64,000 nucleotides of DNA from a bacterium (GCA_030619885.1 JAUXAN010000002.1:30934-94933), one strand, 5' to 3'; shown: positions 22,313 through 27,945, numbered from the stretch's first letter. Numbers and translations are program-made. The notes: generated from the sequence alone by a model not told the origin.

Positions 22313-23107
22313 TTATTTGAGTTTATTTATTTCACTGTCAAGCCGAGCATAGGGTGTTGAGAGCCATGGATCATTCTGAATAAGTCGTAAAAAGTTGGTT
22401 TGAACTGTTTGCATGATGTCTTCTGTAGTAGTCTTTCTCAACTTTGCTAAAGCTTCAATCACATCTTTAATAACTGCTGGCATGCCGGGTGTCCCCGTGA
22501 GCCATTCCAGTCCACCTGGATTATCTGTTTCTGTCAACAATTGATTTGCCGGTAACTCTCGTGCGATGGTTTTAATGTGCTCAGCACGAAGTACCTCAAT
22601 ACCTATCGTGAAATACACACCTCTGGCTACGAGTTCATGAAAGACATCCAGAGGTCCTGAATACCAGTGGATAATTGACCTTTGAATATCATAACGATTA
22701 AGAAGATGCAAGACTTTTTTTTCTGCCCCTTTTGTGTGTACATTGATGATCTTTCCTTGTTCTTTAGCCGCTGATAGAAAGAACTCGAACACTTTTTGCT
22801 GAGCTGGATATTGAGAAGTATCCTCAACAAAGTGGTAGTCTAATCCAATTTCACCGATGATGGGACTCTGTTCAATAACAGTGCTTAGATCTTCCAGATG
22901 CTCAACATATTCAGGAGCATTCCAGGGATGAACCCCGAAGGTAGGCAACACAAGCTCGCACATTTCACCTATCTTTAGATTTCGTTTGTACGAAGGTAGA
23001 TCCATAGAGTTGCTAATAGTGAAAATCGTGTGTTGAGTGATTTCTCCCAAAGCAGATTGCACCGTATTCTCATATCTGTCTAAATGTGAGTGAGCATCTA
23101 TAAGCAT
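22313..23107 (-). CDS. tatD: TatD-family metal-dependent hydrolase
   Basis: MLIDAHSHLD, GEIGLDYHF and IHWYSG motifs. Confidence 0.7.
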   Translation of the reverse strand: MLIDAHSHLDRYENTVQSALGEITQHTIFTISNSMDLPSYKRNLKIGEMCELVLPTFGVHPWNAPEYVEHLEDLSTVIEQSPIIGEIGLDYHFVEDTSQYPAQQKVFEFFLSAAKEQGKIINVHTKGAEKKVLHLLNRYDIQRSIIHWYSGPLDVFHELVARGVYFTIGIEVLRAEHIKTIARELPANQLLTETDNPGGLEWLTGTPGMPAVIKDVIEALAKLRKTTTEDIMQTVQTNFLRLIQNDPWLSTPYARLDSEINKLK

Positions 23108-23286
23108 GTATAACCTCGCGCACAATGGCGTAATAACATCAGTTCGCGGGATTCATGACATTCGCGAACATTACACGCGAAGTCAGTGTCTTGGTGTTTG
23201 CACTTGACGAGGATGAGCCGACTCGGTCAGCGAGCGAATGTCCCGAAGTGTCTGCTGCAGAAGGACAGCGCAAAGTGAATCCACAT

Positions 23287-23917
23287 GTTATATGAAGTGG
23301 CTGGCATGTTACTGTTGGATTATCTTTCCCGCCTGCTCCTTACGAAGGAGGGCGGGCAGGCAATTGCTCTAATATCTTGGATAATCCCTTTTTTCTCTAC
23401 TTCTCGGTGGACGAGCTTCGTCAACTTTCAAGGTACGTCCTTTGAAATCGGAACTGTCCAACGCTTCTTTTGCTTTTTCAGCTTCAGATGGGTCAGACAT
23501 TTCAACAAACCCAAAGCCTTTACCTTCAATTATATTAATTTGTTTAACCTCACCATAATTGGAAAACAATTCTTCCAACTGCTGATTAGTTACAGAATAA
23601 TCAAGGTTTCCTACATAAAGTTTGCTACCTTGCATTCAATCCTCCTACTTTGTCCCGCACTAATACTTTGGTGCGGGGTTTATTTTTCTCTGGCCAATAA
23701 CGTTTCTTTGGAGGTAGAAGCAAAATAGCAATTCTAACCTCTCTGATGAGAACATTATTAAACACAAGAGAACTCTTATTGAAAACTTGTATCACCTGCC
23801 TGTACTGTAGATGCAGGCAGGGAAAATTTATCCCGTTAGATATGAAATTATCTCACGGGGTTTAATCGAGTATTCTTATCACCTCCTTTCACTATTTGCC
23901 AGCCACTTCATATAACT
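23287..23917. repeat. Perfect 20-bp inverted repeat pair bracketing the RRM gene
   Basis: GTTATATGAAGTGGCTGGCA at 23287-23306 and TGCCAGCCACTTCATATAAC at 23898-23917; verified base by base. Confidence 0.8.
23369..23635 (-). CDS. RNA-binding protein with a single RRM domain (Rbp/glycine-rich-type)
   Basis: KLYVGNLDYSVTNQQLEELFSNYGEV (RNP2) and KGFGFVEM (RNP1); AGGAGG SD; hairpin CCCGCAC...GTGCGGG at 23654-23678 abuts the SD. Confidence 0.8.
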   Translation of the reverse strand: MQGSKLYVGNLDYSVTNQQLEELFSNYGEVKQINIIEGKGFGFVEMSDPSEAEKAKEALDSSDFKGRTLKVDEARPPRSREKRDYPRY

Positions 23918-24165
23918 GCTTCTTCTCTCATTTTCTTATTTATCAACTCATTCATCGTCCGGATTATCTAAAGGACTCACTATTTTTCTTATGGATTTCT
24001 TAATAACATGAGTATATGAATAATACCCAAATAATTGGGGTCAGGCTTGAAAGGTTGAATATGTGGGATATAGTCTTCTTTTCCTCTGGATTTTCTCTCA
24101 TAGTCGGGATAAAAAATTTTGACCATCTCATAAACTTGTATTAAATTACAATAAAAACTTAAAAA

Positions 24166-24262
24166 TGTCAAGAAAAAAAGAACCCACGAAACACATTCAC
24201 CCCGTTAGATAGCAAGCATCTAATCCCTACGGATCCGTATGGACGGGGCAGGTTACACGAAT
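24166..24262. repeat. Intergenic repeat element A: two minus-strand TTGACA boxes bracketing CCCACGAAACACATTCACCCC / TACGGATCCGTA palindrome / GGGGCAGGTTACACGAAT
   Basis: Related copies at 53705-53790, 22163-22200, 37051-37085 and 23835-23865. Confidence 0.55.
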
Positions 24263-24283
24263 TTGTCAAGAAAAAGCGACCAT

Positions 24284-27019
24284 TTATAAAAAAATCATTC
24301 CCTGATCGCCATCCACGGTAATTTTATCCCCATTTTTAATAATCCTGGTAGCATCTTTTACTCCTACCACTGCTGGTATGCCATATTCTCTTGCTACAAT
24401 CGCTCCATGAGAAGCAACTCCTCCCACCTCCATTACAAGGGCTTTTGCCGTTAAAAATAGAGGTGTCCAGCCGGGATCGGTATAAGGAACCACTAAAATT
24501 TCTCCTTTGTTGAATACACATCCCTCTGTGGGATCCAGGATAATTCGCGCTTTTCCCGTTACCCTCCCCCTGGATGCCGTCGTGCCTTTCAAAATATTGG
24601 TGTCTTGAGGCTCATGCTCAGAATAAGAAAACATCTTGCCGTCACTTCTTACGATAAAGGGAGGATCTATGGTGAGATTGGTTTCCCATTCTTCTTTGCG
24701 TTCTTGCACCAGATTTTTTATGGTGTTCCTATCAGAGTCTTTTTCCAGGACAAGGGCTTCCAGTTCAGGTAAAGTGAGAAAATAGACCTCGTTTGCGATC
24801 TCAAAATATCCTTCTTCAGCGAGTCTTCGGCCGATTTCTAAAAATATTCTTCTTGAGCCAGAATAACATTTTAAAACATAGTATTTTGGATTTTCTCGGA
24901 GGGGCATATAAGTATGGGCTTTTTTTAACATCTTTTTAAAAAGCCATCTTTTCAAAGGAAACAACCTGGAGAGAATACTTTGAGAAAGCTTTTGATTAAC
25001 TAATTCTGTTAAATGCTCTCGCTTTTCAGCCATTTTTTTGAAATGTTCCAGGGGAGTAATATCTTTGCTATCCAGTTGCAGGTAATTTTTTATCATCTGG
25101 AAAACAAATGAGTGGTCGTCCTTCCATCGAGGGTGTCCAATATCAAATTCTTTCACCCCGCGATGGCCATAAAGTTCCATAAACTGCTCCAACCTTTTCA
25201 GAAATATTTTTCCTTCGCGTCTTTTTTCTAAAAGGGAGGAAATTTCCCCTATTTCTCGGTTTAAAAATATTTGCTTTATCGACTCAGGCATTTGGGAAAG
25301 TTTATACAATTCCAGGGCTCCTTCGGTAGTTTTATTTCCGGGAATACCGGCCACGAGTTTGTCCGGGGACACATCTTTCCATTGCCTCGTTAAAAAATCA
25401 AGCATCCCGTAGCCTAAAACACCATGAGCCATAGCCAAAAATGAAGAAGCCCACAACCTTACCGTATAGGTGGTAAATTCTTTTACATACTTTATCATCT
25501 CTATATTTGATTTCACCTCTACATTCACATTCTCAAACTCGCATGACTCTTGCCAATACTGATTGCATTTCTTTATTATTTTCTTGGGACTTAAAAACCA
25601 TGGCACAAAAAGAAAGCCCAGAAAAATCCTGGTAGCATTAAAAATGAAAAACCATAAGGTCGAGAAACCTTTGGGAAACTCCACCGGTTGCAATTCCCGA
25701 GCCCGGTATAATTTATTAAACAACTTTCCCGCTTCTTTATCTATTTGGGGAAGAAAAAACCTGAAAAATGGGCCGAAAATTGGATTTCCATAGAGCATGT
25801 TCATGTTAAAATACAGTCTTCCATAAACCAAATCTACAAGATTATTATACGGGTAAAGGGATGATTTCTTAGTAATACCAAAGAAACTATTACAAAGAAC
25901 CGGGAATATTATATCCATAAAATAAGAGCAGGCCAAAGTGGTAAGGGGATACGGCATGGTTTCCCGAGTATTCCAGTTGGACCAGAAGACCACTTTATCT
26001 TTCAACAAGTCGCGGCTGGTCTGGTTACCCCATATTACCGGTATAGATTCGGGAGTTTCCTTCATCGTTGTGATCGGTCTGGACTGTAAAATGAAAATTT
26101 GATTCTCATATAATCCCCATTCAATATCCTGCGGGCAATGAAAATACTCTTCGATCCTTTTCCCAATGGCAGCTAATTGTTGAATCTGTTCATCCGAAAC
26201 GCACTGTTGTTGCCTTTGTTCCAAAGGGACAGGAACTTCTACAGACCCTTTTTGTCCTAGTATCGTCATTATTTTCTTCTCGGCAGTGTTTTTGGTCTTA
26301 ATGGATAGATTTTTCTTATCCACAGTGTATTCATCCGGAGAAACTTTTCCAGAAACCACAGACTCGCCCAAACCCCAGTTTGCATTTATAATGAGTTCGT
26401 TTTTATTATGGGTAATCGGATTATGGGTAAAGGTAATACCGGATACAGAGGATGGTACCATCTTTTGGACAACCACAGCCATAAAGACCTTAAGGTGGTC
26501 TACATTGTTCTTGTGCCGATAAGATATCGCCCGGTCTGTCCAAAGAGATGCCCAGCATTTTTTCACGCATAGCAACAGGTCGGGTTCCCGAAAAATATTT
26601 AGCCAAGTGTCGTGCTGACCGGCAAAGGAATAGTTAGGTAAGTCCTCAGCCGTAGCAGAAGATCTGACGGCCACATAAATTTTTTTATGGTGCCCTCCGG
26701 GAAGTTCTCGACATGCCAGTAAGATAGCCTCTTTAACACCCTCTGGAATTTCGTTATCCATTATTAGTTGCCTTAACCTTACCCCGCATTTTTGTATATT
26801 TTCAATATTGGACAGGTCAGAGCCTTCTATTTCTGAGGAGATTTTCTTCCCTAAACTGGAATTTTTAATAAATCCCTGATAAGCTTCGGTAGTAATACAA
26901 AATCCTGATGGAACTAAGAAATCTGCTGAGGTCAACTCTGCTAGGTTTACACCTTTACCACCTACTTCACGAACATCGTTCTTACTTATCTCGGATAAAT
27001 TCTTAATAAAGTTACTCAT
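24284..27019 (-). CDS. PEP-synthase-family phosphotransferase with rifampin-phosphotransferase-like architecture (ATP-grasp/PPDK_N + large insert + C-terminal PEP-utilising His domain)
   Basis: N-terminus GGKGVNLAELTSADFLVPSGFCITTEAY; C-terminus GTTASRGRVTGKARIIL...GEILVVPYTDPGWTPLFLTAKALVMEVGGVASHGAIVAREYGIPAVVGV; 911 aa. Confidence 0.6.
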   Translation of the reverse strand: MSNFIKNLSEISKNDVREVGGKGVNLAELTSADFLVPSGFCITTEAYQGFIKNSSLGKKISSEIEGSDLSNIENIQKCGVRLRQLIMDNEIPEGVKEAILLACRELPGGHHKKIYVAVRSSATAEDLPNYSFAGQHDTWLNIFREPDLLLCVKKCWASLWTDRAISYRHKNNVDHLKVFMAVVVQKMVPSSVSGITFTHNPITHNKNELIINANWGLGESVVSGKVSPDEYTVDKKNLSIKTKNTAEKKIMTILGQKGSVEVPVPLEQRQQQCVSDEQIQQLAAIGKRIEEYFHCPQDIEWGLYENQIFILQSRPITTMKETPESIPVIWGNQTSRDLLKDKVVFWSNWNTRETMPYPLTTLACSYFMDIIFPVLCNSFFGITKKSSLYPYNNLVDLVYGRLYFNMNMLYGNPIFGPFFRFFLPQIDKEAGKLFNKLYRARELQPVEFPKGFSTLWFFIFNATRIFLGFLFVPWFLSPKKIIKKCNQYWQESCEFENVNVEVKSNIEMIKYVKEFTTYTVRLWASSFLAMAHGVLGYGMLDFLTRQWKDVSPDKLVAGIPGNKTTEGALELYKLSQMPESIKQIFLNREIGEISSLLEKRREGKIFLKRLEQFMELYGHRGVKEFDIGHPRWKDDHSFVFQMIKNYLQLDSKDITPLEHFKKMAEKREHLTELVNQKLSQSILSRLFPLKRWLFKKMLKKAHTYMPLRENPKYYVLKCYSGSRRIFLEIGRRLAEEGYFEIANEVYFLTLPELEALVLEKDSDRNTIKNLVQERKEEWETNLTIDPPFIVRSDGKMFSYSEHEPQDTNILKGTTASRGRVTGKARIILDPTEGCVFNKGEILVVPYTDPGWTPLFLTAKALVMEVGGVASHGAIVAREYGIPAVVGVKDATRIIKNGDKITVDGDQGMIFL

Positions 27020-27189: not shown

Positions 27190-27945
27190 TCATTTCATTT
27201 CCATGAAATGAAAAGGATCGTCGTATTCATCAATCACCCCTATTTGTTTTTGCTTCTTTAAAATTCTTGTAATCGCTTTACCGTGTATCCTATCGTGCCA
27301 GACAAATCTCCTCAGCACCTTCTTGAGTGTCCATAGTTCATTGGCTACCTCAAATATTATCGAATTATTGTTTTTGCGATATAAAGGTTCAAGTTTTTCG
27401 AGACAGAATTTTCTGATTGTCATGAAATCTTCCTCTATCTCTTCTGTTATCTTCATTCTCGATAGATAATAGTATTGACAGTATTTTACATGGTCAAATA
27501 TTTCCTGTATCGTCTTGGGATTATCTCCGTAGAAAGTTTTTCTGATTCTTGACTCATCAACCCAGTCTTTGAGTTTGCTGTTAGTGTAAAGTTGTAAAAA
27601 GGTTTCCCCAGAATGCCATACAAGATTATATAGGTTTCTAAATTCTCCATCTCTTATTGTTTCTTTATCTGCTTCCAGTAAAATTTCATTATCTGCATCT
27701 TCAACTGGCAATGAACTCTGATGCCTTTGAACGATTTGAATCCTGTAGTCATGTTTTTGTTCGCCTCCTAACCATTTCAGATATACACTCACCTCATGAT
27801 TGACTTTCATCAGGGCTTCTTGTTCCGTGATACCTCGTATGAAAGCGCCTGGCAATTCTACTATAAATCCCATATATCCTCTCCCGTTAGTTTCAAATGC
27901 TACAGCAACTACATCTGTTAACTCTATCTGTGATCTCCATGACAT
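27190..27945 (-). CDS. Hypothetical protein, N-terminal HicB-like fold and C-terminal DinB/YfiT-like His-rich region
   Basis: GFIVELPGAFIRGITEQEALMKVNHEV resembles HicB/UPF0150; C-terminal WHDRIHGKAI resembles the DinB_2 HxxxHxGQ motif; weak. Confidence 0.3.
   Translation of the reverse strand: MSWRSQIELTDVVAVAFETNGRGYMGFIVELPGAFIRGITEQEALMKVNHEVSVYLKWLGGEQKHDYRIQIVQRHQSSLPVEDADNEILLEADKETIRDGEFRNLYNLVWHSGETFLQLYTNSKLKDWVDESRIRKTFYGDNPKTIQEIFDHVKYCQYYYLSRMKITEEIEEDFMTIRKFCLEKLEPLYRKNNNSIIFEVANELWTLKKVLRRFVWHDRIHGKAITRILKKQKQIGVIDEYDDPFHFMEMK

Follow-up and report, generated by a model that had tools for sequence, protein, structure and literature searches.

The stretch of bacterial DNA considered here, hereafter referred to as the window, is 64,000 nucleotides (nt) long, and carries on its minus strand a short gene, rbp, whose product harbours a single RRM_1 domain. 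On the same strand, rbp is preceded by a gene for a PPDK_N/PEP-utiliser protein and followed by one for a TatD-family protein; elsewhere, the window encodes both Rho and LpxB, which identifies its host as a diderm bacterium. The gene lies within an inverted repeat, whose first arm (GTTATATGAAGTGGCTGGCA on the plus strand, 23287-23306) and second arm (23897-23916) are exact reverse complements of each other (20/20 positions, 100% complementary), separated by a spacer of 590 nt. The first-pass annotation had described a perfect 20-bp inverted repeat that encloses the whole rbp coding sequence (23369-23635, minus strand), and on both counts its description holds, with the sole correction that the second arm had been placed one base too far, at 23898-23917. 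The 20-mer has no further copy in the 64-kb window when up to three mismatches are allowed, and none of 100 shuffles gave a match. The features of the locus are collected in Table 1. The 3' arm is separated from the TatD-family gene, in addition, by a GC-rich spacer of 160 nt (23126-23286; ~50% GC vs ~39% in its surroundings), for which no fold signal was found on either strand (z about 0), nor any Rfam match or similarity to the other loci compared below.

Table 1. Features of the rbp locus, in window coordinates (SD, Shine-Dalgarno sequence)
Feature	Position	Strand	Remarks
3' arm of the long-range helix (UGCCAGCCACUUCAUAUAAC)	23287..23306	-	Repeat search and comparison of loci
Conserved 3'-UTR box AGAUAAUCC	23317..23325	-	29 of 156 loci, usually 10 nt past the stop codon
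Hairpin H4, directly after the stop codon	23328..23360	-	No U-tract, not scored as terminator; displaces the 3' box relative to other loci
rbp CDS, 88 aa, single RRM_1 domain	23369..23635	-	Pfam RRM_1, E=4e-22
rbp SD, AGGAGG	23641..23646	-	Sequence inspection
Inserted hairpin H3	23652..23680	-	Between purine-rich linker and SD, relative to consensus
Conserved leader core	23658..23773	-	Covariance model, 87.2 bits, E=2e-15; core proper ends at ~23686
Helix P1	5' strand 23751-23773; 3' strand 23686-23705	-	Within leader core
Box D, CUUCUACCUCC, anti-SD-like	23710-23720	-	Complementary to boxes A and C and to the real SD
Box C, GAGGUUAGAAU, copy of ribosome-binding site	23731-23744	-	Within leader core
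Inserted hairpin H2 (CCCUGCCUGC...GCAGGCAGG)	23795..23822	-	Specific to the window's lineage
Inserted hairpin H1 (CCCCGUGAGAUAAUUUCAUAUCUAACGGG; cccgttagata...cgggg element)	23832..23860	-	Absent from the family consensus
Box A, GAAAGGAGGUGAU, 13 nt, SD-like, without start codon	23878..23890	-	GAAGGRGGUGAU in most leaders (alignment A2)
5' arm of the long-range helix (GUUAUAUGAAGUGGCUGGCA in mRNA)	23897..23916	-	Homologous to the AUGAAAUGGCUGGCA arm conserved in other loci

Folding of a 661-nt minus-strand stretch that includes both arms placed them opposite each other in the minimum free energy (MFE) structure as well as in the centroid (z = -6.8 relative to shuffles), in a predicted helix of 20 perfect pairs followed by an imperfect extension to about 29. 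In 24 full-length predicted transcripts of 517-662 nt, the core arm pairs are likewise present in the MFE structure, with pair probabilities of 0.85-1.0. The proposal that the two 20-mers pair in the mRNA is thus sustained both by these predictions and by the relatives described below, which keep paired arms through compensatory changes. Since hairpin H4, which lies between the stop codon and the downstream arm, lacks a U-tract, read-through into the 3' arm is likely.

The first-pass annotation had also called for a check for covarying pairing in orthologous loci, and this comparison was carried out with 160 loci that encode close relatives of Rbp (67-86% identity; 85-86% amino-acid identity for the best), 80 from species-representative genomes and 80 from metagenomes, numbered here with the prefix L. 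Their phylum labels, taken as given on the genome records, include Clostridia, Zixibacteria, WOR-3, Dehalococcoidia, Thermodesulfobacteriota, Latescibacterota, and Nitrospinota, as well as Nitrospira, Cloacimonadota, Ignavibacteria, Atribacterota, Actinomycetota, and Planctomycetota. An exact search for complementarity between the two flanks of the gene uncovered the same kind of repeat, with GATATGAAATGGCTGGCA present in L057 and L072 and variants of it in L050, L067, L053, L029, and L022. RNAduplex returned meaningless giant duplexes on long flanks, and the arms were instead sought as ungapped stems around the conserved core UGGCUGG, with shuffles as control. Homologous arm pairs were recognized in this manner in about 28 of the 160 loci, which belong to different phyla, and their positions are consistent: the distance from the 5' arm to the ATG is usually 175-200 nt (119-153 nt in L057, L072, and L011), and the 3' arm is found 35-120 nt past the stop codon. 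Many of these homologous stems consist of just 12-15 contiguous pairs, with wobbles and mismatches, and a clear ungapped stem is present in about a fifth of the loci only.

In the arm alignment (A1), standard pairs occupy 75.3% of cells, a figure that is inflated by the fact that the arms were located through a complementarity search, compared to 66.2% in column shuffles (0 of 500 reach the observed value) and to 31-42% when the register is slid. Double-sided changes occur at 21 of the 22 pairs, and the compensatory combinations include UGACUGG/CCAGUCA, UGGCCGG/CCGGCCA, UGGAUGG/UCAUCCA, CAGUUGG/CCAGCUG, and GAGGCUGG/CCAGCCUC. An unbiased ungapped test, in which the best stem between 5' and 3' flanks had to be matched by no more than 2 of 200 shuffles, detected a stem at p<=0.015 in 22 of 141 loci, where about 2 would be expected; the stems of L126 and L108, which arose as indexing artefacts, were dropped from this test. 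[quoted passage not shown]

The form that the pairing takes varies between lineages. The paired region grows outward in some of them and inward in others, and two groups of loci make use of different sequences altogether: L081 and L128, which are close to L022, pair UGACUCGGUGAC, upstream of the usual arm, with a different segment of the 3' UTR, and L097, L098, and L100 pair UUGUGCAAU with AUUGCACAA. As these loci join their UTRs through unrelated sequences, it is the pairing itself, and not one particular sequence, that has been kept. The arm core TGGCTGG/CCAGCCA, for its part, is conserved beyond what pairing requires. Counts of G-U vs A-C combinations in the long-range helix were suggestive (18:7 in the core; 36:13), but fell to 13:8 after the removal of near-duplicates (p=0.38); since the excess of G-U is not significant after de-duplication, the long-range helix taken alone does not prove selection at the RNA level. 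A further observation concerns L088, whose 3' arm (UGCCAGCCCCUUCAUAC) finds a better match in box A (GUGAAGGGGGUGGUA) than in the canonical 5' arm. Box A and the 5' arm are alike, which may reflect an ancient duplication or a choice of partners open to the 3' arm.

The position of the arms with respect to predicted transcription signals is most easily read in the relatives. L057 and L072 carry a consensus TTGACT-17-TATAAT promoter whose predicted start falls where the pairing of the 5' arm begins, and in loci labelled Atribacterota/Caldatribacteriota, as well as in L038 and L043, a predicted promoter lies 8-20 nt upstream of the helix. At the other end, an intrinsic terminator follows the 3' arm at a distance of 0-25 nt in ten loci (L057, L072, L065, L148, L044, L105, L107, L021, L040, and L010), so that the downstream arm is, by prediction, co-transcribed with the gene in those loci; the expectation that this arm forms part of the transcript agrees with the predictions for those relatives in which a terminator can be recognized. 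Taken together, the positions of promoters and terminators imply that the helix joins the extreme 5' end of the transcript to terminator-adjacent sequence.

In the window itself, the promoter scan yielded no minus-strand sigma-70-like promoter within 22800-24600, neither scan nor inspection revealed a convincing sigma-70-type promoter adjoining the 5' arm, and no intrinsic terminator was recognized by the scan past the 3' arm. Two TTGACA hexamers do occur on the minus strand (24171-24166 and 24269-24264), from which a leader of 500 nt had been deduced, but neither is accompanied by a matching -10 element. Similarity between the window and the other loci starts at 23919, 3 nt upstream of the 5' arm, and ends before the 3' arm; this onset implies a conserved leader of about 280 nt, and the estimate of 500 nt finds no support. 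Each hexamer forms part of a 12-nt sequence, TGTCAAGAAAAA (on the minus strand, TTTTTCTTGACA), that is directly repeated without mismatch, its copies at 24166-24177 and 24264-24275 flanking a hairpin at 24200-24248.

Downstream of the 5' arm, the leader is itself conserved, with TAATAATGTT near -100 and CTACCTCC near -57 being common to more than half of the loci. The consensus (alignment A2) begins with the 5' arm, followed by box A (GAAGGRGGUGAUAAGAAU), a variable segment, GGUUCUCUUGUGUUUAAUAAUGUU, and box C (GAGAGGUUAGAAU), and continues through a 12-nt loop, box D, AACAUUAUUGGACAGAGAGAA, a purine-rich linker, and the SD. When the core was cast into a covariance model (R1) from 46 loci, with the window left out, the only significant match in the 64 kb lay in the leader of the window's rbp (Table 1); the portion of this match that runs across H3 is forced onto the unpaired 3' tail of the model. 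Model R1 matches 106 of the 160 loci (54 of 80 genomes, 52 of 80 metagenomes), and, save for one weak antisense match, always does so on the coding strand, directly upstream of the rbp start codon. In some loci (L110, 2114-3003; L061; L077), two or three copies of the core occur in tandem, ~390 nt apart; these represent rbp paralogues, each with its own leader and with little room for long-range arms.

RNAalifold, applied to the full leader alignment, recovered only helix P1a (UAAUAAUGUU/AACAUUAUUG), and the other leader helices were tested by naming them. P1 and the hairpin formed by boxes C and D are 85.8% paired, vs about 50% in slid registers, and P1a is 97.5% paired; as variation within P1a leads nearly always to G-U, selection there must act on the sense strand of the mRNA only. 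No relevant Rfam 15 family was detected at gathering score in the whole window or in 16 of the loci, and nothing relevant was found at E<=10 in the leaders of the window and of L022. Sub-threshold matches to RAGATH-25 (22 bits, vs a gathering score of 49, and absent in L022) and to S6-S18-Chlorobi were treated as chance.

The leader thus contains three sequences that resemble ribosome-binding sites, namely box A, box C, and the real SD, as well as box D, which is complementary to all of them. We take box A to be complementary to the conserved 3' tail of 16S rRNA; the window holds no rRNA gene against which this could be compared. In predicted structures, box D pairs with box C and the SD stays moderately open; a switch in which box D would capture the SD is conceivable in such models, and receives no support from covariation. 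A leader of the cold-shock type, as had been suggested for rbp, fits the conserved, structured core and what has been reported for the RRM-1 proteins of Bacteroides (PMC13370968). Partition-function folding of 10 leaders between 10 and 50 C gave no consistent temperature-dependent opening of the ribosome-binding site in silico.

Hairpins H1, H2, and H3 together account for the greater length of the window's leader. Both the cccgttagata element, which corresponds to H1, and the hairpin that abuts the SD, which corresponds to H3, had been singled out by the first-pass annotation, and both are present; they are, however, lineage-specific insertions and not components of the conserved leader. A hairpin of the H1 type, CCCCGTTAGAT...ATCTAACGGGG, recurs in a longer variant ~300 nt further upstream (24200-24248), and is found in the rbp 3' UTR of L022, L081 (3304-3328), and L128 (2759-2783), that is, in other organisms. 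Given this recurrence, the hairpin may be a small module that accompanies rbp mRNAs, either mobile or bound by a protein. Read on the plus strand and followed by TTATTTTTCT, H3 scores as an intrinsic terminator, which no nearby plus-strand gene explains; it could act as a stop for antisense transcription through rbp. On the other side of the gene, the 3'-UTR box, which reads AGATAATCC in the window and in 28 other loci, is often followed by AAATTTAGTGGTAAA and then by the 3' arm. A search for a pairing partner of AGATAATCC gave none, and the box could be a protein-binding site.

The coding sequence displays a peculiarity of its own. Between the window and loci of other phyla (L083, L022, L128, L089, and others), rbp is 0.85-0.90 identical at the nucleotide level vs 0.80-0.85 at the amino-acid level, with the same codon being used at ~80% of identical residues and a GC3 that is near 0.28 everywhere. 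This pattern suggests either constraint on synonymous sites, imposed by RNA structure or by codon choice, or recent horizontal transfer.

An inverted repeat that brackets a gene lends itself to more than one explanation. The very same RNA duplex could mainly be a substrate for RNase III, whose cleavage would remove both the 5' triphosphate end and the terminator, and would either mature the mRNA or trigger its decay. The usual length of an RNase III substrate is roughly two helical turns, which is what the 20 perfect pairs of the window and their imperfect extension to about 29 amount to, and complementary flanks around a complete functional unit reproduce the geometry of the rRNA processing stems. 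The short and imperfect stems of many relatives, with their 12-15 contiguous pairs, speak against such a role, as does the cost that the loss of both protective ends would seem to entail for an mRNA otherwise apparently built for stability, and we consider this explanation, although the foremost among the rivals, rather unlikely. Other possibilities place the function of the arms in the DNA. They could be two inverted copies of an operator, bound at either end of the gene by a regulator, whose parallel change would mimic covariation, a proposal with which both the conservation of the TGGCTGG/CCAGCCA core beyond pairing needs and the insignificance of the de-duplicated G-U excess (13:8) are in agreement. 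A fixed protein site, however, does not predict that the paired segment should shift in extent or be replaced by unrelated sequences in some lineages; moreover, the 5' arm lies downstream of the predicted transcription start in L057 and L072, and the arms themselves are not dyad-symmetric. An operator pair is thus very improbable.

Two further readings involve rearrangement or movement of the segment. Perfect 20-bp inverted repeats 590 bp apart are of a size typical for invertible segments, and could serve as recombinase sites that invert a 630-bp segment, turning rbp off as it comes to face away from an outside promoter. The scan found no promoter inside the segment, however, and Pfam identified no recombinase in the interval from 10.2 to 38.4 kb, where 21 larger ORFs were scanned (the ORF at 27190-27945 is without a Pfam match); the arms are, furthermore, conserved in sequence and position across phyla, within a predicted transcription unit, and display register-specific compensatory change as well as relocated pairing. 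The low rank that DNA inversion had been given at the outset is therefore confirmed, and of all the readings considered here it is the one to which we attach the least credence; look-ups of the exact Rbp protein and of its PPDK-like neighbour returned nothing on record and no near-identical contigs. Alternatively, rbp could pass from one genome to another on a small mobile cassette, with the arms as its terminal inverted repeats. The TatD, PPDK-like, and DUF5916 proteins of the window have no relatives in any of the 160 loci, so that no neighbourhood is shared, the stretch of nucleotide similarity sets in at the 5' arm and falls short of the 3' arm, and the nucleotide identity of the coding sequence across phyla exceeds its amino-acid identity, all of which a cassette would account for. 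Yet no transposase or integrase was found among the same 21 ORFs, there is no target-site duplication (the flanks being ccacat and ctgctt) and no other copy of the 20-mer in the window, no Rbp relative was found on viral contigs, and the boundaries fit a transcription unit equally well. A cassette delimited by the arms is accordingly highly doubtful, though the missing synteny and the unusually high nucleotide identity of the coding sequence would allow for horizontal spread of the rbp unit as such.

The repeat is real and is matched by arm pairs in many phyla, and the two ends of the rbp mRNA therefore most likely pair with each other. The explanation that we favour, and which we judge reasonably probable from the comparison of sequences, is that the two 20-mers represent the 5'-UTR and 3'-UTR arms of a single rbp mRNA and close it into a panhandle that would serve in the control of its stability. 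The unit would be composed, in this order, of promoter, 5' arm, SD-like box A, leader core, purine-rich linker, SD, rbp, 3' box, 3' arm, and terminator, with the leader core comprising helix P1 and the ribosome-binding-site mimic paired to the anti-SD-like box. [quoted passage not shown] The leader core is probably a further layer of control, translational or by feedback, in which Rbp itself or temperature would be the effector. What was observed is the complementarity of the arms, which is conserved and shows compensatory change, the place that it takes in the unit, and the conserved structure of the leader; formation of the helix in vivo, the ends of the window transcript, and each of the functional consequences outlined above are inferred.

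A broader and more tentative proposal, which may well prove too ambitious, can be built upon this panhandle. It would see in rbp a self-contained, closed-loop mRNA module common to more than a dozen bacterial phyla and made up of the end-pairing helix, the 3'-UTR box, and a ~190-nt leader in which a ribosome-binding-site-like sequence occurs three times and the 16S rRNA tail is mimicked once. Such a module would constitute a widespread, undescribed class of cis-regulatory RNA that adjusts how much of a global RNA chaperone is present, by autoregulation and/or in response to temperature, combined with protection of the mRNA ends. In bacteria without Hfq or CsrA, proteins with a single RRM are coming to be seen as global RNA chaperones, and the control of their own level is at issue. 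Should the leader and the end-pairing helix hold as features conserved across phyla around these genes, they would offer a concrete, mutable RNA element with which feedback and cold control could be probed, widen by a broadly distributed example the very small set of bacterial mRNAs with known pairing between their two UTRs, and define a new RNA family, complete with alignment and covariance model, that current Rfam-based annotation misses. Neither a cross-phylum, covarying end-pairing helix around RRM-protein genes nor a description of the rbp leader and its 3'-UTR box AGAUAAUCC was found in Rfam or in the searchable literature, which for the most part leaves subscription journals outside.

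Two elements of known kinds are combined here, namely UTR-UTR pairing within a bacterial mRNA and a long leader ahead of an RNA-chaperone gene. With respect to the leader, RRM-1 proteins of Bacteroides have 5' UTRs of 122-155 nt, accumulate in the cold, and repress themselves in part through the 5' UTR (PMC13370968), and RbpB cross-links to its own mRNA (PMC11697453). The rbpA/B/C genes of Bacteroides and cspA of E. coli share with rbp a long 5' UTR upstream of a small gene of the RNA-chaperone type; by contrast, no report of 5'-3' pairing was found for those leaders in the publications consulted, and that of rbp folds without clear thermosensor behaviour. Among the Rfam families without a match at gathering score, in the window as in 16 of the loci, is the cspA thermoregulator. 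The Chlorobi-RRM motif (Weinberg et al. 2010, PMC2864571; Rfam) is likewise a conserved RNA, presumed to lie in the 5' UTRs of genes for RRM proteins, but it has no match in the leaders of the window or of L022 at E<=10, nor at gathering score in the window and 16 loci. Box A, being SD-like and devoid of a start codon, recalls a STAB-SD or a decoy, from which it differs in that it could also pair with the anti-SD-like box D. In the cryIIIA mRNA of B. thuringiensis, the STAB-SD is a strong SD-like sequence without a start codon, situated near the 5' end of a long leader.

With respect to the pairing, the RNase III stems of 16S and 23S rRNA resemble the rbp arms in that complementary sequences lie on both sides of a complete unit and form a long duplex; the rbp unit, however, is an mRNA, and the stems of its relatives often fall below the length of a standard RNase III substrate. 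The UTRs of one and the same mRNA also pair in icaR of S. aureus, where the interaction is regulatory: the 3' UTR pairs with the Shine-Dalgarno region, translation is blocked, and cleavage of the duplex by RNase III triggers decay. The rbp pairing is situated about 250 nt ahead of the SD, which it leaves free. [quoted passage not shown] As in rbp, the gene encodes a small, abundant nucleic-acid-binding protein, and its mRNA is monocistronic, with a structured leader and a UTR duplex of similar length. The predicted rbp helix differs from that of hbs in that its 5' arm is located at or near the very 5' end of the transcript, in that it counts 20 perfect pairs in the window, and in that many phyla have kept its pairing, with compensatory change.
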